Positions 1,402 to 40,864 of a stretch of DNA of 50,584 nt are shown in pieces. The DNA comes from an uncultured Flavobacteriales bacterium (GTDB lineage: Bacteria > Bacteroidota > Bacteroidia > Flavobacteriales > UBA7312). The notes below the pieces were generated by a model, which saw only the letters and a program-made list of their open reading frames with translations, made no database searches and had not been told where the DNA came from. Location: positions 1 through 50,584 of the forward strand of contig CAXDOW010000003.1 of NCBI GenBank assembly GCA_963991165.1. The letters are read 5' to 3'. Position 1 is the stretch's first letter, and each line of letters begins with the position of its first letter. The translations under genes and the position numbers were made by a program.

Positions 1402-3220
1402 TTTTGAAACTTATTACGACAAAAAAACATATAGCTTAAGTAAACAGACTACCGAAGCATATATTAGAAGTCCTGAGTTTGAAGTCATTGGAGTTTCCGT
1501 ACAGTTTAACGATGAAAAACCTGAGTTTTTTACAGGCACATTTGAAGAGACTAAGAACTTTTTAGAACAGTTTGCTTGGGAAGATAGTGTGGCTATTGCA
1601 CATAACGCAATGTTTGATTCTGCTATTTTATCTTGGGTATACGATATATCTCCTTTGGTTTGGGCAGATACTTTATCTATGGCAAGAGCGATTCATGGTT
1701 TTGAAGTTGGTAATAGTCTAGCTAGACTTTCCGAGTTTTACGAACTAGGATGCAAAGGCACCGAGGTACATGATGCTAACGGCAAACGTAGAATTATGTT
1801 TACAGAAGAAGAGATGGTTCGATACGGAGAATACTGTTCAAACGATGTAGCTCTTACTTATAAGTTGTATCACGAACTGAAAAAGAATTTTGTACAAATA
1901 GAACTTGACCTGATTGATTTAACAATAAAGATGTTTTCAGACCCAGTCCTTCATGTTGATATTGCAGCCTTAGAAAAACATTTAGAAAACGTAAAGTCAA
2001 AAAAGGAGGAACTGTTAAACAATGCGGAAGCATCTAAAGAAGTTATTATGTCTAACGATAAGTTTGCCGAGGCTCTGTTGGCCTTAGATGTAACACCCCC
2101 AAAGAAAATATCTGCACGTACAGGCAAGGAAGCTTGGGCGTTTGCAAAAAGTGATAAAGAGTTTATGAATTTATTAGAGCATGAAGATATACGTGTGCAG
2201 AGTTTGATGTCAGCTAGATTAGGGGTGAAAACAACAATTGAAGAAACACGTACTGAGAGGTTTATAGGTATTGGTAAAAGAGGACTTCTCCCGGTGCCGT
2301 TAAAGTATTATGCGGCACACACAGGTAGGTGGGGTGGCACTGATAAAATCAACTTACAAAACTTACCATCAAGAGATGGCACATCAGGTATAAAAAAATC
2401 TATCGTGCCGCCAAAAAATTATTCTCTTATAAACTGTGATTCTTCTCAGATAGAAGCTAGAACTCTGGCTTGGTTTGCGATGCAACAAGATTTAATAGAT
2501 GCTTTTGCTGATGGTCAAGACGTATACAAGATTATGGCTTCTAAGATTTATGGTAAAGAAGTAGAAGATATTACGAAAGAAGAACGATTCTTTGGTAAGA
2601 CAGTGATTCTAGGTTGCGGTTATGGAATGGGGCACGTTAAATTCCAAGCCATGCTAAAACTTCAAAATATAAATATTGACTTAGAAGAATCAAAGCGAAT
2701 CATCACCGTATATAGAACTACTTATCCAAGAATAAAGAGTTTATGGTATGCGGCAAATAGTGCGTTGGATGATATGGTAAGAGGTACGAAGTGTGTGGTG
2801 GGTAGAAAAGGTATTATAGAACTGTGCAAAAATGGTTTTGTACTACCAAACCACATGAAGTTGATATACAACAACTTGACTGTGAAACAAGAAAGCGACT
2901 ACTCTTTTGGGGTTCGATCTGTATTTACCTACGATAGAAAGAAAAACGAAAAAGATGTGTATATATACGGTGGTAAGGTGGTCGAGAATATTGTTCAAGC
3001 GTTGGCTCGTTGTATTGTGGCGGAGCAGATACTAAAAGTCAGTAAGAAATACAAAGTAGTTTTGACAGTGCATGATGCTGTTACATGTTTAGTTAGAGAT
3101 AGAGAGATAGAGGAGGCAAAAAAGTATGTCGAAGAATGTATGCGATACGTCCCAGAGTGGGCAACAGGACTTCCAATCGACTGTGAACTTGGAGTCGGAA
3201 AGTCCTATGCAGAGTGCTAA
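1376..3220 (+). CDS. polA: Family A DNA polymerase with 3'-5' exonuclease domain
   Basis: Exo I IDFETY, Exo II AHNAMFD, Exo III YCSND; TGRW, NLQNLP, motif A DSSQIEAR, motif B RFFGKTVILGCGYG, motif C VHDA. Confidence 0.95.
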   Translation: MTQNYLTIDFETYYDKKTYSLSKQTTEAYIRSPEFEVIGVSVQFNDEKPEFFTGTFEETKNFLEQFAWEDSVAIAHNAMFDSAILSWVYDISPLVWADTLSMARAIHGFEVGNSLARLSEFYELGCKGTEVHDANGKRRIMFTEEEMVRYGEYCSNDVALTYKLYHELKKNFVQIELDLIDLTIKMFSDPVLHVDIAALEKHLENVKSKKEELLNNAEASKEVIMSNDKFAEALLALDVTPPKKISARTGKEAWAFAKSDKEFMNLLEHEDIRVQSLMSARLGVKTTIEETRTERFIGIGKRGLLPVPLKYYAAHTGRWGGTDKINLQNLPSRDGTSGIKKSIVPPKNYSLINCDSSQIEARTLAWFAMQQDLIDAFADGQDVYKIMASKIYGKEVEDITKEERFFGKTVILGCGYGMGHVKFQAMLKLQNINIDLEESKRIITVYRTTYPRIKSLWYAANSALDDMVRGTKCVVGRKGIIELCKNGFVLPNHMKLIYNNLTVKQESDYSFGVRSVFTYDRKKNEKDVYIYGGKVVENIVQALARCIVAEQILKVSKKYKVVLTVHDAVTCLVRDREIEEAKKYVEECMRYVPEWATGLPIDCELGVGKSYAEC

Positions 3221-21621: not shown

Positions 21622-23522
21622 TATCTTCTCCCGTCCGGCTTTCCATCTACACGAGGCGAACCTAGTTTCCAAAATGTGCCCTGTGAAGTGGATTCTATTT
21701 TAAATCCTATTTGTCTGGCTCTGGCTCTCATAAACACTTGATTTGTATAGTTATTTACAGACGTTTGTACCACCCTTTGTTCTGCTTCATCAGAGTGTAC
21801 AGCTCCATTAAAGTCTCTTGGTAACACAGACAGCAATGCTGTTGGTTGTGAGGTGGTAGAAGTCTTAAAATCTATGTCAGGAATAATACGTTTTATCAAC
21901 GTAAATTTGTCCCCATCTGCAATATCTATATCAGAAGAAATTATAAAAGATGATAATGCAGAACCATCTGCATCATTTCCTAATTCATGGTTAAATAAAA
22001 ATGACTCCCCAGTAGCTTGTGGATATCTTCTCAAACTAGAATCTAACCACGCTGATCTTTGTATACTTCCGTAAAACCATATGTTGTCTTTGTAGTTATA
22101 TGTGATGTAAGAATCGTTGATATTACTATCTTGAGAAGGATAGAACCACCAAATCTCATTTTGTGATTCTACAGCTCCAGCGTATACATAAGCTAACGCA
22201 TCAAAGTTTAAATTATCAAATACATGATCTCTCAAAGTGCAAGGTAATGTATCCACTCTACCATTGTATATATAGAACTTATCAGTGCCCATCCAGTAAG
22301 TAACACCCTCAACACTAATTGGCGATCTAGCAGAAGCTATAGAGATGTGTGGGTCTAACTCTTGTAATCCAAATACGTCAAAAGTTCCTAAAAATTGTAA
22401 TGAGTGTAGACTAGAATCGGTAAATACTAATATCTCTTGACGTGTGCTTATTGCGGATACAATTCTTGATCCGCTACTCACTCTAATAAACCCAGCACTT
22501 TTTGCATCGTCTGCAGGATCAAAATTATATGGTTCGTTTTGACTTGCAAATCTTATAAGTAAAGGATCAAAGTCGCCTGTATCTTCAGTAGGTGTGCCTC
22601 CAGCATACGCAGAAGCTCCAAACGCTAACAAGTGTCTATCTTTTTGAGACACCAATATTTGTCCTACTTCAGCAGGTACGTTTTTCGGTGTAACAGAACT
22701 CCCCGCAAAACTAGTTATGCTGGATAATTTAACTGCTCTTGTGCCTAACGCATCGCTGGGGTTGGTAACTGTGCCTCTTGACCAATAATATAAAGCTCCC
22801 TTTCCATCTGTGTTTACGTTGGCAAATAGATCATTATCAAAATTATCAAAAAACCAAACTGTAAGTGGTAAACTTATGGGTTGTAATGAACCTTCACCCC
22901 AACCTCCACTGTTCCAATTATCTGTTCCCCAACCATAACCTAAAGTAAGAGTACCATTTCCAGCATCTACTTCATAAGTAGCAATTGCACTTGAACCACC
23001 ATTTCCTGTGTCGGAAGAATTAGCAGTGGCAGTAGCAGTAAACGAATAATTGTTGGTATCTATTTTTGTTATTTCATAATTTTGATTTAAAACATCTGCT
23101 GTAATTAAACCACCTAAAGCCGTAGCTCCAGAAAATGTTACAAAATCTCCAGTGTCTGCACCATGAGATGCATCTGTAGCTACGATAACAGTAGAACCCG
23201 CTGTGGCATCAAACGTAACATCCCCTGCACCAGTGGTTGCTCTTATAGGTGTTATGTCGTTTAAGTTAGTACCAACTTCTATATATAACTTACTATTTGT
23301 TCCTATAGCTAAAAAATTGTCATTAAATGATGTTACCCAATTAAATAATCCTCTACACGTGCCAGATAAAGAAGTTACAGAATGTTTTTGCCACCCTTTT
23401 AATTTTTCAGGGTAACCATCTAAAAATCTTACTTTATCACATTCAAACCACCCACCTTCGTTAGAGTAGTTGGTTAGGTTTCTATTTATTCCCGGTTTAA
23501 ATTGTAGTTTTGTTAAAGGCAT
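21621..23522 (-). CDS. Tail hub/nozzle (DNA stabilization, P22 gp10/T7 gp12-like) protein
   Basis: 633 aa beta-rich with repeated aromatic strands; position before ejection proteins. Confidence 0.6.
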   Translation of the reverse strand: MPLTKLQFKPGINRNLTNYSNEGGWFECDKVRFLDGYPEKLKGWQKHSVTSLSGTCRGLFNWVTSFNDNFLAIGTNSKLYIEVGTNLNDITPIRATTGAGDVTFDATAGSTVIVATDASHGADTGDFVTFSGATALGGLITADVLNQNYEITKIDTNNYSFTATATANSSDTGNGGSSAIATYEVDAGNGTLTLGYGWGTDNWNSGGWGEGSLQPISLPLTVWFFDNFDNDLFANVNTDGKGALYYWSRGTVTNPSDALGTRAVKLSSITSFAGSSVTPKNVPAEVGQILVSQKDRHLLAFGASAYAGGTPTEDTGDFDPLLIRFASQNEPYNFDPADDAKSAGFIRVSSGSRIVSAISTRQEILVFTDSSLHSLQFLGTFDVFGLQELDPHISIASARSPISVEGVTYWMGTDKFYIYNGRVDTLPCTLRDHVFDNLNFDALAYVYAGAVESQNEIWWFYPSQDSNINDSYITYNYKDNIWFYGSIQRSAWLDSSLRRYPQATGESFLFNHELGNDADGSALSSFIISSDIDIADGDKFTLIKRIIPDIDFKTSTTSQPTALLSVLPRDFNGAVHSDEAEQRVVQTSVNNYTNQVFMRARARQIGFKIESTSQGTFWKLGSPRVDGKPDGRR

Positions 23523-36024: not shown

Positions 36025-36314
36025 TTTGCTTTCACACTGTTAATATATTTTCTGTAAACTCCAGCAGCAGATTTTTTACCCATAACTCTAGCTCTTTGTT
36101 CCATAGCTATAGCAGCTTGAATTTTGTGGGCTTTTGACCTACCACTATTTCTTATTTTACTTACGCTTTTTACCGCATCCTCTCTAGTAGCAAACTTCAA
36201 CCCTTTTATTGTACCCTTTGGGTTTTCGTCCGTATAGAGGTCAGAGTGTTTTTTAGACCTTGCGGGTTGACCTTTTTTTCTTGGTATTCTTGGGTTTGAG
36301 GATCGTTTTAACAT
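36021..36314 (-). CDS. Small basic hypothetical protein
   Basis: HSDLYTDENPKGTI motif; Lys/Arg-rich. Confidence 0.6.
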   Translation of the reverse strand: MLKRSSNPRIPRKKGQPARSKKHSDLYTDENPKGTIKGLKFATREDAVKSVSKIRNSGRSKAHKIQAAIAMEQRARVMGKKSAAGVYRKYINSVKAK

Positions 36315-36546
36315 TTGTTGGTTTGCCTCCCGGATTCCCTGCTGCTCGTTTTCTTTGAACAGCAGATTTACGTTGTGCTGCAGTCATAGACTTAGCTTTT
36401 GCTCTTGGTACACATTTAGGATAGGCTCTTTTACTGTCTTTAGCAGACTTACGTCCACAGGCTTGGTATTTACCCTTTTTCTTTGGGGCACCTATATCTA
36501 CCCAATCTCCTTTTGGGCCTTTACCAAACCACTCTTTAAGAGACAT
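36253..36546 (-). CDS. Small basic hypothetical protein
   Basis: LKEWF...WVDI...CGR...YPKCVP. Confidence 0.65.
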   Translation of the reverse strand: MSLKEWFGKGPKGDWVDIGAPKKKGKYQACGRKSAKDSKRAYPKCVPRAKAKSMTAAQRKSAVQRKRAAGNPGGKPTNVKTILKPKNTKKKRSTRKV

Positions 36547-36722
36547 TATCTATACCCCCCACCCCTTTTCTTGTACTCACGCACTATGTAGCCTGATGCA
36601 TAAGCACTTGGAAAAACCTTAAATTTACGCTTAGCTTCAGCTTTTACACGAGCATATAAAGATGGGTTAGTGGGTTTTGCCCCCGCTTTTTTCTTAGAAG
36701 TTTTTTTCTTTTTAGCAGCCAT
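36546..36722 (-). CDS. Small basic protein not in the ORF track (58 aa)
   Basis: MAAKKKKTSKKKAGAKPTNPSLYARVKAEAKRKFKVFPSAYASGYIVREYKKRGGGYR; TAATG coupling on both sides. Confidence 0.7.
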   Translation of the reverse strand: MAAKKKKTSKKKAGAKPTNPSLYARVKAEAKRKFKVFPSAYASGYIVREYKKRGGGYR

Positions 36723-37111
36723 TATTTAACCTTTCCACCTCTAGCCATCTTCTTCATAACAGCACCGCCTTTGGACATCTTAACAGCACCGCCTTTAGCC
36801 ATTTTCTTCATAACGGCTCCGCCCTTGGACATTTTTGTCATAACGGCACCGCCCTTGGACATTTTAACTGCTCCTCCTTTAGACATCTTAACTGCTCCAC
36901 CTTTGGACATCTTTACAGAGTTACCTTTAGCCATTTTCTTTCTCATCGTAGTTCCTTTCCGTTGTCTAAGTAATGCGAAATCTTTTCCAGTTATTTTACC
37001 ATCACCATCAGCATCTAGTTTTTTTCTATTGCCAGTAGCAATGTTACTTTTTTTCTTTTCCTTTTTGTTTCCTTTTAGTTGTTTTGACATCTGACTTCTC
37101 GAGATCGACAT
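36722..37111 (-). CDS. Basic protein with EF-hand-like loop and KMxKGGAV repeats
   Basis: DADGDGKITGKD loop; eight MxKG/MxRG units; SD GAGGAG favours start at 37111. Confidence 0.7.
   Translation of the reverse strand: MSISRSQMSKQLKGNKKEKKKSNIATGNRKKLDADGDGKITGKDFALLRQRKGTTMRKKMAKGNSVKMSKGGAVKMSKGGAVKMSKGGAVMTKMSKGGAVMKKMAKGGAVKMSKGGAVMKKMARGGKVK
36725..36935 (-). repeat. Degenerate 24-30 bp tandem repeat encoding KM(S/A)KGGAV
   Basis: Repeated CC(T/C)TT(G/A)G(A/C)CAT units on + strand with synonymous variation. Confidence 0.85.
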
Positions 37112-37778
37112 TTTCATCTCCTCTATAAAGATTGTTGAATGTTACGTCCGGATCCATGTATGAATCATCTTGTTCCGCACAATGTGTAAATTGTGTTGGT
37201 CTAAAATCAGGAGCACCTTCACCTGTAACCCAGAGGGCAGGAGAAGTAACTCTGACTCTATTGTTAGGTAAAGCGACCATGTTACCCTTCCATTTTCCGT
37301 CTGTCAGCACCATAACGTGACTCTGCTTGTGTTGGGCTGGACAGTCTGCGATTTCGCTTTCGGTGTAGTCCACAGTGAAGAGATATCTCGCTGTGTGAAA
37401 TTCCCCTGCAATTTTTGCAAGCCATGGGCTAGGTTTACACCTGTCAAGGGACACAATTGAGTGGTGGTGCGATGGGCAGTCCCACGGTTGTGCGAGGTGT
37501 GTTTCCATTCTTTCAGGCCATTCATCCATTGGGATGTCCCCACACAAGGCTGTGAGAGGCATCCTTGCCCACATTGCTCCTCCATGGGGGTTACTTTCAC
37601 CTTCCTCTTCTTCACATCCTGTAAAGATGATTTGGAAACTGAGGCATCTGTCGGGCATTGTCGTGACAGCAATCGCCAATCCGTGTATAAACTCCCCGTG
37701 ATATTTTTGATGTCCATGTGTAAATTCTTTTCTAATCCAAACTTTCGTATAAGGTATGTTACTTATTAAATACGCCAC
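37044..37778 (-). CDS. Hypothetical protein (Cys/His/Trp-rich)
   Basis: 244 aa ORF, GGAMWARMP and QPWDC motifs; function unknown. Confidence 0.7.
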   Translation of the reverse strand: MAYLISNIPYTKVWIRKEFTHGHQKYHGEFIHGLAIAVTTMPDRCLSFQIIFTGCEEEEGESNPHGGAMWARMPLTALCGDIPMDEWPERMETHLAQPWDCPSHHHSIVSLDRCKPSPWLAKIAGEFHTARYLFTVDYTESEIADCPAQHKQSHVMVLTDGKWKGNMVALPNNRVRVTSPALWVTGEGAPDFRPTQFTHCAEQDDSYMDPDVTFNNLYRGDENVDLEKSDVKTTKRKQKGKEKK

Positions 37779-38076
37779 GAATTATTCTCCCTTTTGTTTT
37801 TCCTTTTTTAGCGATCCCATCTCTCGGTTTACTTCTAATTAAACCTCCTTTTCTAACCTTTAAAGATTCCACCCCATCTGGGAGTTTCTTTATTGGTTTT
37901 TTATCTTTCTTTGGTTTTTCTTCCTTCTTTTCTTCTTCATCATCTGAAAAATATTTTCGATAGAATTCCTCAGCCGCTCTACCTGCACCAAATGCACCCC
38001 CCAAAATAACACCCCCTCTTACAATTGGTGCGATAGCAACTTGGGTTGGCTTTTTCTTTGTATCTTTCTCAGCCAC
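37759..38076 (-). CDS. Small charged hypothetical protein
   Basis: C-terminal KGG...RDGIAKKGKTKGR. Confidence 0.6.
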   Translation of the reverse strand: MAEKDTKKKPTQVAIAPIVRGGVILGGAFGAGRAAEEFYRKYFSDDEEEKKEEKPKKDKKPIKKLPDGVESLKVRKGGLIRSKPRDGIAKKGKTKGRIIRGVFNK

Positions 38077-38351
38077 TAAACCATTCGACCTTTTGTCTTA
38101 CCTTTTTTAATAATACCATCAGCACGGCTAGAAGCATTTGATGCTACCTTTTTCTTTTTAACACCACCAGCAGCTCCGCCTTTTGATTGCATGTAACCAC
38201 CACCTGCTTTTTTATCTTTATCTTTAGGTCTTGTAGTTAATACCCTTGACACTGCTCTAGCTTGTGATCCGGGATCATCACTTTCCATTACAGCATCTTC
38301 TAACTCTTTTGCTGTTTTGTTCTCTTTTTTATTTTTGTCATGTTTAGCCAT
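38076..38351 (-). CDS. Small basic hypothetical protein
   Basis: C-terminal KGG...RADGIIKKGKTKGRMV; start at 38351 by TAATG coupling. Confidence 0.6.
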   Translation of the reverse strand: MAKHDKNKKENKTAKELEDAVMESDDPGSQARAVSRVLTTRPKDKDKKAGGGYMQSKGGAAGGVKKKKVASNASSRADGIIKKGKTKGRMV

Positions 38352-38644
38352 TATTTTCCCCAAAAAAATTGTTGCACCATAATTATAAAAGCAGTTACAG
38401 CACTACCTGCACCTGCTGCCCACATCAATGTTTTCCAACCACCTCTAGCTTCTGATAATACCTTATGTATCTCAGCTAGAGATGTTTTAATCTCTTCTAT
38501 ATCAGCTTTCATTTCATCCATATCATCTTGAATGTGATGTATTTCGTTTGCTTGAACAGCTATTTCACTTTCAATAGTTGGTTTTTTCCTACGTCTTCTA
38601 GGTTTTGGTTTTGGCTTAGTCTTTGTTAAGATTGCTTCACTCAT
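38351..38644 (-). CDS. Coiled-coil protein with C-terminal TM segment
   Basis: Heptad IQDDMDEMKADIEEIK then GGWKTLMWAAGAG hydrophobic tail. Confidence 0.65.
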   Translation of the reverse strand: MSEAILTKTKPKPKPRRRRKKPTIESEIAVQANEIHHIQDDMDEMKADIEEIKTSLAEIHKVLSEARGGWKTLMWAAGAGSAVTAFIIMVQQFFWGK

Positions 38645-38940
38645 TAGCATTTCCACCTTTTTCTAGCTTGTCGTAAACGACTGTTTGGATCTTTAGCTGC
38701 CTTTGGGAACATTTTCATTTGTCCAGCAGAACGTGCACAAAATGATTTGCGTCTTTTTGCATCTTTTGAACCTTTTTTAACTTTTCCTGTTACAGCAGTT
38801 TTTAATTTAGAACCGGGATTAGCTCTGCGATATGCAGCTACTCCTTTTTTAGTCATACCTGCACCCTGCTTAGTCGGGCGAAAATTACCCGACTTCACAG
38901 AAGTTTTAATTCCCATTCCTTTTTTTCTTTTAGCCTTCAT
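38644..38940 (-). CDS. Small basic hypothetical protein
   Basis: GMTKKG...NPGSKLK...RRKSFCARS...DPNSRL...WKC. Confidence 0.7.
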   Translation of the reverse strand: MKAKRKKGMGIKTSVKSGNFRPTKQGAGMTKKGVAAYRRANPGSKLKTAVTGKVKKGSKDAKRRKSFCARSAGQMKMFPKAAKDPNSRLRQARKRWKC

Positions 38941-39217
38941 AAAACAAAGTAACACTAGGTATATTAGTTGTGCTACTAGATGTTACATGAATACCATCAC
39001 CGAACAAAAGACCTCTACCCGGTACATAAACTGTTTCTGTACCAATTGCACTAGGAGCGGTCAACTCTAATAGTGTAGTTCCTCCGCCTGATCCATTACT
39101 AAAAGTCAAATCAGCACTGGCAGCATGAACGTAGTATATGGCTTGTAGTCTTGAACGAGGTGTAACTGTCGCTGAAGAAGACGTAAAAGATAGACTTCTA
39201 ACATCTGATTCCATCAC
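38930..39217 (-). CDS. Small beta-rich virion protein
   Basis: VPGRGLLFGDGIHV...VTLFY; RBS AAGGAG. Confidence 0.6.
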   Translation of the reverse strand: MMESDVRSLSFTSSSATVTPRSRLQAIYYVHAASADLTFSNGSGGGTTLLELTAPSAIGTETVYVPGRGLLFGDGIHVTSSSTTNIPSVTLFYEG

Positions 39218-39224
39218 CTACTCC

Positions 39225-39674
39225 TTATGAGTCAGTTACATTTAAATTTACGTTCTGTAGATATTTAACGGTTACATCAGCAATACCTTCATCACCATCT
39301 ACTATACCTGTTGGGTTAAACGTAGCGATGACTGTACGATCACCAGTACCAATATTTATAGAAGCTGTAGCCATTCCTGTGCTTTGTGTTAAAGCAACTG
39401 CTTTAGCGTTTGCACTATTTAATAAAGCCGTTGTAGCTCCTGAAAAACCAACAGAAAGAGTGGCTGCTGCAGAATTATTAGAAGCCTCTACAACATTAAA
39501 TGAAACTTCTGTAATTTTAGAGTTTGCTGGTACGACACCGACTGTTGTTGTAGCGGTTGCCCCAACAATATCTACTACTGCTGATTGAGCCATAATTACA
39601 AAACCAGTGTTTGAAGTAGCTCCATCTCTTTTATCGCCCGCTTTGATTGGGCCTGAAAATGTTGTTGTTGCCAT
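39225..39674 (-). CDS. Putative capsid decoration/minor structural protein
   Basis: MATTTFSGPIKAG start, Thr/Ala-rich, downstream of the capsid gene. Confidence 0.6.
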   Translation of the reverse strand: MATTTFSGPIKAGDKRDGATSNTGFVIMAQSAVVDIVGATATTTVGVVPANSKITEVSFNVVEASNNSAAATLSVGFSGATTALLNSANAKAVALTQSTGMATASINIGTGDRTVIATFNPTGIVDGDEGIADVTVKYLQNVNLNVTDS

Positions 39675-39686
39675 TTTTATCTCCGT

Positions 39687-39755
39687 GTATTAGCACATCG
39701 TCACACAATCTCTAATACGTCTGCTAGGTCAGTATGTGTGACTAATTAACCCTAG
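39687..39755 (-). ncRNA. Candidate double-pseudoknot cis-regulatory RNA
   Basis: Four interleaved complementary pairs (5, 8, 3 and 7 bp) in 69 nt, ending 2 nt before the GGAG RBS of gene 39674. Confidence 0.55.
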
Positions 39756-39908
39756 TTATTTTTTGATAGTTTCTTTAACCCAATTATAAGGTTTTTCAGA
39801 ATAATCTACCATTGCTTTTGCCATAGCAGCGTTACCGTCTATGACACTTTTTGTTGATTCAGATACTTGCTTTGTCCAAGCATCCCAAAATTTTATAATT
39901 ATATCCAT
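39756..39908 (-). CDS. Small protein not in the ORF track (50 aa, amphipathic)
   Basis: MDIIIKFWDAWTKQVSESTKSVIDGNAAMAKAMVDYSEKPYNWVKETIKK with RBS GGAGA. Confidence 0.6.
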   Translation of the reverse strand: MDIIIKFWDAWTKQVSESTKSVIDGNAAMAKAMVDYSEKPYNWVKETIKK

Positions 39909-39918
39909 TTATGTCTCC

Positions 39919-39950
39919 AAAAATGAGAAGGGGGCACATGGCCCCCACTC
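39919..39950 (-). terminator. Hairpin/terminator after major capsid gene
   Basis: - strand GAGTGGGGGCCATGTGCCCCCTTCTCATTTTT. Confidence 0.65.
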
Positions 39951-39952
39951 GA

Positions 39953-40864
39953 TTAAGATGAACCGGGCGATCCAAACATTCCCAATGGATCAGAAAATCC
40001 AAAGGAATATCTCTCACGAGCCTTGTACCGTACATTACCTGTGTCGAAATCTCCATCCATAGATGTAGCCATAGGTGAACGAACAAAGTGCTTAAGACCG
40101 TTAGGTATATCTGTTGTTAAGAACCAAGCGTTTGTATCAGTTAAATAGTGGTTTATTGAATAACCTTCAGGTATAGAACCATTATTAGCCAATGCATTAA
40201 GATCATTATCAGCAGTACCAACTCTTCCTTGAGTTTCTAATAAACGTGTTGCCACGAATTGTAGTGCTGGAGGAATGATTAACTTTCTTGGTTGTGATGC
40301 AATTAATAAACCACGCTCATCTACCCAAGCTGCAATCTGAATTACTGAATCTTCTAAAGATGTTTCATTCAAGTCTGCTCCTGTAGACGGACGGTTACTG
40401 TTTGTACCACCACTTACTAATGGATGATCTGTAGCAAACAAAGGCTTGCCATCACCACCTGTAAATGCAGTGTTAAAACCATTATTTAAAGTAGCTGCAG
40501 CTTTTACTTGTTTTGTATAAGCCATCGCTCTTGCTAAAGCCTTTGTGTAACGAGAAGAAAGACTATCGTAAAGATTATCTTCCATTGCTTCTTCAGTTAC
40601 CGCAAAACCCATAGCTATGGTTTCGTGTGAATATCTAGCAGTAAACGCCTCTTGTGCATTATCAAATTCTACAGCAGCACCTTCAGTTTTAACTGGAGCT
40701 GCACCAAAGCCAGAAAGCTTTGTTTCCTCTTCAAACGAACGCTCGGAAGTTTCTTGCTCGTATATCTCCTTGTGCTCTTCGCCGTACTTGGCATACTCTA
40801 AACCAAACAAAGCATTTAAGCCCGGAAGGAGTTCTTTCAGTAGTTGTGCTCTTGAAATAGCCAT
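39953..40864 (-). CDS. Major capsid protein
   Basis: 303 aa after scaffold; ELLPGLNALFG, DGKPLFATDHPL, KLIIPPAL, KARERYSFG; strong RBS and downstream terminator. Confidence 0.88.
   Translation of the reverse strand: MAISRAQLLKELLPGLNALFGLEYAKYGEEHKEIYEQETSERSFEEETKLSGFGAAPVKTEGAAVEFDNAQEAFTARYSHETIAMGFAVTEEAMEDNLYDSLSSRYTKALARAMAYTKQVKAAATLNNGFNTAFTGGDGKPLFATDHPLVSGGTNSNRPSTGADLNETSLEDSVIQIAAWVDERGLLIASQPRKLIIPPALQFVATRLLETQGRVGTADNDLNALANNGSIPEGYSINHYLTDTNAWFLTTDIPNGLKHFVRSPMATSMDGDFDTGNVRYKARERYSFGFSDPLGMFGSPGSS

Follow-up and report, generated by a model that had tools for sequence, protein, structure and literature searches.

Several phage and bacterial mRNAs carry leaders with a defined fold. 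The leader of phage T4 gene 32 forms one simple H-type pseudoknot, which is separated from the ribosome binding site (RBS) by an unstructured, protein-coated tract, and the P22 scaffolding protein is autoregulated. The regulatory site of the E. coli alpha operon is a double pseudoknot. A nested double pseudoknot is also typical of hepatitis delta virus (HDV)-like ribozymes, the strands of which follow each other in the order P1 P2 P3 P3′ P1′ P4 P4′ P2′. The putL and putR RNAs of phage HK022, which make RNA polymerase resistant to pausing or termination, are composed of two stem-loops and are not pseudoknots. Emory, Bouvet and Belasco reportedly found in 1992 that 5′-terminal structures leaving no more than about two unpaired bases stabilise bacterial mRNAs, and Richards and Belasco are said to have found in 2019 that obstacles hinder the scanning of ribonuclease (RNase) E. 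Here, we describe a double-pseudoknot RNA element on the minus strand of contig CAXDOW010000003.1, which was analysed over its whole length of 50,584 bp (“the window”). The element occupies positions 39755-39685, directly upstream of a gene for a predicted capsid cement-type protein, and consists of four interleaved helices, A to D, plus a fifth helix, E.

Three pattern scans of viral contigs, the totals of which are lower bounds, revealed at least 334 distinct copies that fall into three subtypes (113, 104, and 117 copies of subtypes 1, 2, and 3, respectively); large parts of the “invariant” core of these copies are fixed by the search patterns. Our preferred reading, to which we assign a probability of roughly 40%, is that the element is a cis-acting leader that would bury the 5′ end of the mRNA and fix the context of the RBS.

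Architecture of the element

From 39755 to 39672, the minus strand of the window reads CTAGG, 8 nucleotides (nt), GTCACACA(T), A, CTG, A, CCTAG, CAG, AC, G, TATTAG, AGA, (T)TGTGTGAC, GAT, GTG, CTAATA, CAC, GGAG, ATAAAA, ATG. The 5′ strand of helix A, CUAGG (39755-39751), pairs with CCUAG (A′, 39728-39724), which lies inside the 6-nt loop of hairpin C (39721-39732; stem CUG/CAG, 39732-39730 with 39723-39721). An A/U-rich spacer (39743-39750), which is 5-12 nt long in the relatives, leads from helix A to the first strand of helix B, i.e. GTCACACA at 39742-39735, the partner of which is TGTGTGAC (B′) at 39707-39700. Both strands of helix B are supported by covariation, and the relatives contain a ninth pair, which extends the two strands to 39734-39742 and 39700-39708 and is represented by a U-U mismatch in the window (39734/39708). 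Hairpin C is followed by a junction of a conserved “AC” and one variable base (39720-39718) and by the 5′ strand of helix D, UAUUAG (39712-39717), with AGA (39711-39709) directly after it. The partner strand D′ (39693-39688) is the whole 6-nt loop of hairpin E (39685-39696; stem GUG/CAC, 39696-39694 with 39687-39685), mirroring the position of A′ in the loop of hairpin C. The Shine-Dalgarno (SD) motif GGAG (39684-39681) is located directly 3′ of helix E, and the start codon ATG (39674-39672) opens an open reading frame (ORF) of 149 amino acids (aa) at 39225-39674.

The original prediction had placed four perfect complementarities at this site, in the order A B C A′ C′ D B′ D′, and the location on the minus strand, the perfect pairing, and the order all proved to be correct; with helix E, the full order is A B C A′ C′ D B′ E D′ E′. 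Helix D had been predicted to comprise 7 bp. Six of these pairs stand, while the first, G39718-C39687, is not conserved, and its C belongs to helix E.

The fold is compact: little is unpaired besides the A/U-rich spacer after helix A. The longest helix has 9 bp, and helices of up to 9 bp would be too short for RNase III. Stop codons are present in several frames (in CTAG and TAG motifs), and therefore the element is not coding. Two crossing perfect stems of at least 7 bp occurred in only 2 of 5000 dinucleotide-type shuffles of the 75-nt sequence. The minimum free energy of a nested-only fold is −16 kcal/mol (z = −0.40; 64 of 200 shuffles were equally stable), a score that is uninformative because the element is a pseudoknot. 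A covariance model found a single copy in the window, with 87.6 bits. The core also matches at 22327-22345 on the plus strand with one mismatch; this candidate was rejected as a second copy, as it lies within a 633-aa ORF and is devoid of flanking complementarity.

Relatives and covariation

When the downstream protein was used as a query against viral contigs, 43 loci were retrieved. The upstream DNA of 41 of these loci, together with that of phage DSL-LC04, comprised 22 distinct sequences, 17 of which have the form found in the window, with obvious compensatory changes. A scan with the core pattern yielded at least 120 loci, i.e. 104 full-length copies, one partial copy, and 15 chance matches. 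In an alignment of 111 subtype-1 sequences (106 distinct), helices B, C, D, and E are paired in 96.4% of the cells, compared with 81.1% in column shuffles; many copies are closely related, and such cell counts overstate the number of independent events. Changes on both sides were found at 15 of the 21 pairs, and the observed values were reached by none of 500 shuffles. Sliding the partners by 1-3 columns lowered the pairing to 15-56%.

The single helices differ in their variability. All nine pairs of helix B show changes on both sides, with 93.2% of the cells paired, and this helix was recovered independently when RNAalifold was applied to the alignment. Helix D has such changes at three of six pairs (98.9% paired). 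Helix C is 100% paired, with changes on both sides at one of three pairs, i.e. the middle one (UA in 102 sequences, AU in two, and CG in two). For helix E, two of three pairs changed on both sides (UA in 94 sequences, CG in four, AU in two, and UG in one; GC in 101 and AU in three).

The element is present in the cultured Pelagibacter phages HTVC023P (subtype 2) and HTVC027P (subtype 3), as well as in phage DSL-LC04. A blastn search with the element against 50,697 phage records identified DSL-LC04 only; the copies of HTVC023P and HTVC027P were reached via the capsid gene. In each complete phage record searched with the covariance model (HTVC023P, DSL-LC04, and a 56-kb IMG/VR genome), there is one significant copy. 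Genome contigs contained 11 true copies among 59 pattern matches, all of them in records of metagenome-assembled genomes (MAGs) labelled with unrelated phyla, and therefore no host can be read from them. Ten of the 11 are on separate contigs, and one is inside a 1.12-Mb “chromosome” record. The latter, a subtype-1 copy at 1,090,635-1,091,258 of a Dehalococcoidia bin (L316, CP070693.1), lies near the end of the record and may represent an integrated or mis-scaffolded phage. Five further, more distant leaders (L035-L037, L044, and L287, the last from phage 023Pt_psg01) scored below significance with the covariance model R1. By eye, they have a covarying helix B, followed by “AC”, and (A/G)GA before its 3′ side, and they may be further subtypes of one superfamily.

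A signal at the DNA level, e.g. a promoter or a recombination boundary of a mosaic gene, or chance could in principle underlie a conserved block of this kind. CTAG-containing palindromes are indeed present, and the transition from the conserved leader and first 17 codons to a hypervariable gene body resembles a mosaic boundary. Compensatory double changes that keep five helices across at least 334 distinct sequences are, however, not expected for a DNA signal, and the shuffling frequency given above argues against chance, so that the lack of an RNA function appears hardly credible.

Exchange of helices A and D between subtypes

The sequences of helices A and D are kept within a subtype, and their best support comes from comparisons between subtypes. 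The scan for subtype 2 identified at least 120 loci with 109 distinct sequences. In this subtype, the loop of hairpin C is CUAGG and the 5′ strand is CCUAG, i.e. the reverse of the subtype 1 of the window. With no filter applied to helix A, a G comes after the upstream CTAG in 106 of the 107 subtype-1 copies, and a C comes before it in all 100 subtype-2 copies. An ungapped alignment of 53 sequences from subtypes 1 and 2 shows helix A paired in every one of them, and three of its five pairs differ on both sides between the subtypes. This swap may be a single register-shift event because CTAG is palindromic.

Subtype 3 provides stronger evidence for both helices, as judged from the exchanged sequences. 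It was first seen in HTVC027P and in three further loci (L032-34), and the covariance model aligned it with 20-28 bits. The architecture is the same, and the helix sequences are exchanged. The strands A/A′ are CUAUA/UAUAG in 113 copies, CUGUA/UACAG in two, and CUGCG/CGCAG in two; the matching upstream complement of the loop is present in 117 of 117 copies, compared with 4 of 234 in a control with the wrong variants. The strands D/D′ are CCUAG/CUAGG, wholly unlike the D sequence of the window. In two IMG/VR loci (L215 and L235), hairpin C has an 8-nt loop (CGCCUAGG) and the upstream strand is CUAGGC, giving a 6-bp helix A, which by its sequence is a further compensated change.

In HTVC027P (L286, MN698241.1, locus 2950-3050), the sequence TGTATAAT resembles an extended −10 box, yet it is the 5′ strand of helix A: CUGUAU pairs with the loop sequence GUACAG, and the likely −10 box is found 7 nt further upstream. 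This case calls for caution in promoter calling in such phages.

Comparison with RNA families and catalogues

Rfam 15 contains 4227 models, including riboswitches, self-cleaving ribozymes, ribosomal-protein leaders, and exoribonuclease-resistant RNAs (xrRNAs). At the gathering threshold, the whole window gave no match to any of them. Between 39500 and 40000, three matches were obtained with E values of up to 10, all on the opposite strand and upstream of the element, and none on the strand of the element. For ten related loci of subtypes 1-3, no Rfam model matched the element at E values of up to 1. These results and the compensatory changes in the collected relatives, which support all helices, bear out two expectations of the original prediction, i.e. 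that relatives would show covariation and that the element would fall outside described families, among them HDV-like, hammerhead, and pistol ribozymes.

According to the accessible part of the 2023 study by Fremin et al. (PMC10690425), Rfam contains no gene 32 model. The same part of that study reports 8,495 unnamed candidate structured RNAs from IMG/VR, which are intergenic, covarying, and about 67 nt long on average (PMC10690425). The element may be among them. The supplements of PMC10690425 that are available in readable form contain neither any of four 10-base core strings, which represent two subtypes and were written both as DNA and as RNA, nor any of six contig identifiers, and the available passages of its main text describe no capsid- or cement-associated pseudoknot. 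Full-text literature searches returned nothing on a double-pseudoknot motif of phage cement-gene leaders. Set against Rfam, the element is a new RNA family, which the unnamed catalogue of 2023 may already list.

Position relative to the ribosome binding site

The element is closely associated with the SD motif. Among 107 subtype-1 copies, the distance from the end of D′ to the SD motif is 3 nt in 72 and 5 nt in 30. For 97 subtype-2 copies it ranges from −2 to +5 nt, with 11 copies overlapping the SD motif. The overall range of both subtypes is −2 to +6 nt. The distance between D′ and the ATG is 10-19 nt in subtypes 1 and 2. In subtype 3, D′ is within CUAGGAG and overlaps the SD motif in 112 of 117 copies. 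Across the family, the end of the last helix ranges from 5 bases before the SD motif to 2-3 bases within it. Helix E is present in 106 of the 107 subtype-1 copies and, in the same register, in 3 of the 97 subtype-2 copies; a subset of copies has a shifted helix E, such as GGUC/GACC. As in pseudoknots that serve as translational operators, the pseudoknot of the leader thus adjoins or covers the RBS. The structured cis RNA next to the RBS that had been proposed originally is borne out by the conserved fold and by these distances.

A closing helix next to the SD motif, together with a length of about 70-80 nt, a pseudoknot, and conserved unpaired junctions, is also typical of translational riboswitches. 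The double pseudoknot could accordingly be an aptamer for a small molecule or an ion, and ligand-dependent formation of helix D beside or over the SD motif, which in subtype 3 is partly inside this helix, would tune translation. In subtype 1, however, the SD motif is outside all helices, and inspection of the alignments revealed no conserved alternative (anti-SD) or competing pairing. Helix B is variable and devoid of a conserved pyrimidine tract, no Rfam riboswitch model matched at E values of up to 10, and the gene concerned encodes a structural protein of the virion instead of a metabolic or transport function. We therefore regard a riboswitch as quite improbable.

Predicted 5′ end of the transcript

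Promoter motifs upstream of the element indicate where its transcript would begin. In 94 of 117 subtype-3 copies, TTGnnn, 17 nt, and TAnnn[A/T] precede helix A at a distance of 6-8 nt, which is 7 nt in 90 copies. The two boxes are mostly TTGCAC and TATAAA, and the base just 5′ of helix A is an A in all 94 copies. The remaining 23 copies deviate from the strict pattern, or their upstream sequence was too short in the analysed slice. A −10-like hexamer is also found in the other two subtypes: the distance from its end to helix A is 7 nt in 56 and 5-8 nt in 90 of 99 subtype-2 copies, and 7-11 nt in 49 of 111 subtype-1 copies. At any other offset, −10-like boxes occur in 0-8 copies of these two subtypes. 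Full promoters with −35 and −10 boxes precede 28 of 111 subtype-1 and 15 of 99 subtype-2 copies. We infer from these motifs that a sigma-70-type promoter sets the start of transcription one base before helix A in most relatives, the window's own copy excepted. For most members, the RNA would begin with pppA followed by helix A, and the element would constitute the entire 5′ untranslated region (5′-UTR) of the cement-gene mRNA. In the window, a weak −10-like hexamer, TATCAA (39763-39768, minus strand), is situated 7 nt before helix A, at the offset of the −10 boxes of the relatives, and might have the same role.

A 5′ end at this position could alternatively be made by cleavage, either by a new self-cleaving ribozyme or at a processing signal for a nuclease. 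The element is a compact double pseudoknot with conserved junction bases, and the conserved block always begins at helix A, irrespective of whether a promoter, a terminator, or the stop codon of an ORF lies upstream. In addition, four metatranscriptome runs cover the region, and in two of them, X1 and X4, contigs break off within the element (39716-39728), which would be weakly compatible with cleavage. These ends, however, most likely reflect branching of the assembly graph at a core that is common to many strains and not an RNA end, as the start, the end, and the strand of an RNA are unreadable from contigs. The strand order fits no known ribozyme class, no Rfam ribozyme model matches, and copies with a full promoter are predicted to start 1 nt before helix A, so that cleavage would be unneeded. 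A ribozyme or processing signal is thus very unlikely.

For HTVC027P, the accessible part of a published transcriptome lists gp62, the gene downstream of the subtype-3 element, as “Late”. The mean transcripts per million at the last time point are about 28,568 for gp62, 11,866 for gp60, 36,186 for gp61, and 74,585 for the capsid gene gp59 (PMC12753301). These values would fit a separate or a more stable transcript for gp62.

The element would be transcribed first from such a promoter and it heads a long run of co-directional late genes. By analogy with the put RNAs, the nascent leader might therefore bind RNA polymerase and confer resistance to pausing and termination throughout the late operon. 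Against this speak the absence of terminator-like sites on the strand of the element between 39150 and 39929, and the position of the next gene (38930-39217), which is given as overlapping with the cement gene ending at 39225. The tight coupling to the SD motif would be left unexplained, and put RNAs lack pseudoknots. A put-like role consequently seems highly improbable.

The downstream gene and its product

The 149-aa protein encoded at 39225-39674 on the minus strand had no match in sequence searches of PHROG, Pfam, and PDB. An AlphaFold2 model based on 14 homologues has a mean predicted local distance difference test score of 75.5 and shows an eight-strand beta sandwich with 17 disordered residues at the N-terminus. 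Foldseek searches of the PDB with this model retrieved capsid cement proteins, i.e. those of KHP30 (7dn2, E = 7.9e-5, template modelling (TM) scores 0.55/0.64), Pam1 (7eel_H, E = 2.1e-4), GP4 (8h89_J, E = 6e-4), and KHP40 (7dou, E = 7e-4), with target-normalised TM scores of up to 0.64 among the best matches. The homologue of DSL-LC04 carries the depositor's label “cement protein”, in agreement with the fold matches. The gene product is thus predicted to be a capsid cement-type protein, in line with the decoration-type function that had been suggested for it.

The N-terminal motif M-A-x-T-T-F-S-G-P-V-x-S-x-N-G-F (about 17 residues) was found in 206 of 215 downstream ORFs (loci L001-L285). A hidden Markov model of the window family matched only 58 of the 215 because the body of the protein is hypervariable. 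This arrangement resembles a conserved anchor on the capsid that is joined to an exchangeable domain exposed at the surface. The third codon positions of the conserved N-terminus vary, and therefore the constraint on the RNA ends at the start codon.

The strict association with one gene, seen in the N-terminal motif, is what would be expected if the leader were an operator for a phage protein. Free cement protein, the capsid protein, or a dedicated repressor or activator would bind to the leader and control the access of the 30S subunit, and synthesis of the cement protein would then track capsid assembly, by analogy with T4 gene 32 or P22 scaffolding. Within subtypes, helices A, C, and D as well as the junctions keep their sequences, which fits sequence-specific recognition, and the pseudoknot touches or overlaps the SD motif. 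The exchange of the A and D sequences between subtypes 2 and 3 argues, however, for recognition of shape and not of sequence. The cement protein is a neutral beta sandwich rich in T, S, and A without a match to an RNA-binding family, and the hypervariability of its body contrasts with the conservation of the RNA. An operator is therefore unlikely, in our estimate.

Downstream of the cement gene, the minus strand contains small, very lysine-rich ORFs (36722-37117, 36253-36722, and 37759-38955), one of which (131 aa) has tandem K-M-S-K-G-G-A-V repeats. They may encode internal or DNA-associated virion proteins.

Genomic setting upstream

The gene upstream of the element (39953-40864, minus strand, 303 aa) encodes the major capsid protein, as indicated by matches to a PHROG major head protein (E = 1.9e-24) and to Pfam Phage_capsid_4 (E = 1.2e-13). 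It is followed on the same strand by a terminator-like GC hairpin with a T-run (39930-39946), which was found in a consensus scan and has six GC pairs. In 170 of 193 relatives, the DNA preceding the element encodes a homologous capsid C-terminus in the same orientation, and the upstream consensus of subtype 2 is a terminator hairpin, a T-run, ATG, TATAAT, 7 nt, and helix A.

In the lineage of the window, the ORF list contains a 50-aa ORF at 39756-39908 on the minus strand, the TAA stop codon of which abuts helix A. This ORF is confined to close relatives (L003-L017), among which it shows amino-acid-conservative changes in the same frame, and is absent from most other copies. It had no match in Pfam or PHROG.

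The capsid region of the window is related to that of HTVC023P-type Pelagibacter podophages, the capsid genes being about 65% identical at the nucleotide level. The window makes up one whole contig of a 2.14-Mb MAG with 198 contigs, and it may be a phage contig that was mis-binned.

Proposed function

The leader that we favour would act through both of its ends. Helix B closes a loop around strand D and hairpin C. Strand A, the predicted start of the transcript, pairs with the loop of hairpin C, and the bases just 5′ of the RBS (D′, often the loop of hairpin E) pair back onto D. The 5′ end, with about one unpaired base, would be stacked at the junction of helices C and A and thereby be shielded from decay initiated by a pyrophosphohydrolase, by 5′ sensing or scanning of RNase E, or by an RNase J-type exonuclease. 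The fold would fix the place of the SD motif at its 3′ edge, setting the rate of initiation. Protection and a fixed SD motif together would allow a capsid-like output from a gene that lies behind the capsid terminator; solved capsids with cement proteins suggest that these are needed in roughly the same amounts as the capsid protein. It may reasonably be supposed that the element sets the stoichiometry of capsid and decoration proteins, as was suggested in the original prediction. That prediction had left four options for the mode of action. A leader that protects the 5′ end or acts on translation gains from the predicted start in most relatives, while a processing site between capsid and cement genes is weakened because the promoter puts the start 1 nt before helix A in most of them.

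Several observations weigh against a leader that protects the 5′ end and positions the RBS. In about 13-15% of the copies (15 of 106 in subtype 1 and 13 of 100 in subtype 2), the element is immediately preceded by a GC hairpin of the terminator type and lacks a −10 box there. The promoter scan of the window called no promoter at TATCAA, and in the window as well as in L003-L017 the 50-aa ORF ends directly at helix A, with only this weak hexamer; the stop codon abuts helix A, and therefore a terminating ribosome would open the 5′ pseudoknot. The SD motif is partly within helix D in subtype 3 (112/117) and in some subtype-2 copies (11/97), and the fold may restrain translation rather than promote it. 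Protection of a 5′ end would require no more than a simple hairpin; the complexity of the fold and its almost invariable junction bases (A, AC, and AGA) suggest a more specific function. In the large sets, the search patterns account in part for the apparent invariance of A′, C, and AGAGA. Finally, the transcription start and the effects on stability and on translation are all inferred from sequence.

A more far-reaching version, which we consider possible though rather doubtful, is that the element would be the first nuclease-blocking or ribosome-docking fold of a bacterial virus, i.e. a protein-independent “cap and enhancer” of late mRNAs, or else a new class of ribozyme or riboswitch. As a cap and enhancer, it would bury the triphosphate of the 5′ end within coaxially stacked helices and place the fold on the 30S platform beside the helix of SD and anti-SD, and it would serve HTVC023P-type pelagiphages and their freshwater relatives. 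The accessible part of PMC12753301 calls the HTVC023P-type pelagiphage group the most abundant known in the ocean.

Structured RNAs with covariation and copy numbers of this extent are rare finds outside Rfam, and the carriers of the hundreds of copies include marine and freshwater phages. HTVC023P and HTVC027P grow on Pelagibacter HTCC1062, and therefore the function is directly testable. If the element blocks RNases or recruits ribosomes, it would offer synthetic biology a compact stabiliser or insulator that needs no protein, and it would be a bacterial analogue of viral elements of the xrRNA or internal ribosome entry site type. If it is merely a stabilising leader, it would still be a clean new family for Rfam.

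Likeness to known systems

Small size (50-90 nt), a frequently double pseudoknot, and occurrence in phage or metagenome DNA are shared with the HDV-like, twister, pistol, hatchet, and hammerhead ribozymes. The strand order of the element is not known from any of these ribozymes.

The T4 gene 32 leader resembles the element in that it is a phage mRNA leader with a pseudoknot ahead of the RBS; the gene concerned is a late or middle one with strong expression, and the element, too, would act in cis on translation. In contrast to gene 32, the element consists of two interlocked pseudoknots that reach the SD motif, and the sequences are unrelated. The rpsO (S15) and alpha-operon (S4) operators of E. 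coli are also pseudoknots that include or adjoin the SD motif, and they act at the step of 30S binding. They are, however, operators for ribosomal proteins with the SD motif and the AUG inside the fold, whereas the SD motif of the element is mostly outside and the host is another one; no Rfam model of a ribosomal-protein leader matched the element.

In the xrRNAs from flaviviruses and plant viruses, a region enclosed by a helix forms pairs with the 5′ flank as well as with the 3′ flank. The element has the same type of pairing: helix B is crossed by helix A and by helix D, and covariation supports each of the three. Both folds are compact, and the element might, like the xrRNAs, protect the RNA downstream of it. 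The xrRNAs form a ring at a three-way junction, stop the eukaryotic Xrn1, and belong to RNA viruses, in which they occupy 3′-UTRs or intergenic regions. In contrast, the element has a secondary structure without a three-way junction and is a 5′ leader of a DNA phage.

The element would resemble the ompA-type 5′ stabilisers in having a structure that starts about 1-2 nt from the transcript start of a stable, highly expressed mRNA. The ompA-type stabilisers are plain hairpins without a conserved sequence, whereas the element is a pseudoknotted fold of five helices that reaches as far as the SD motif.

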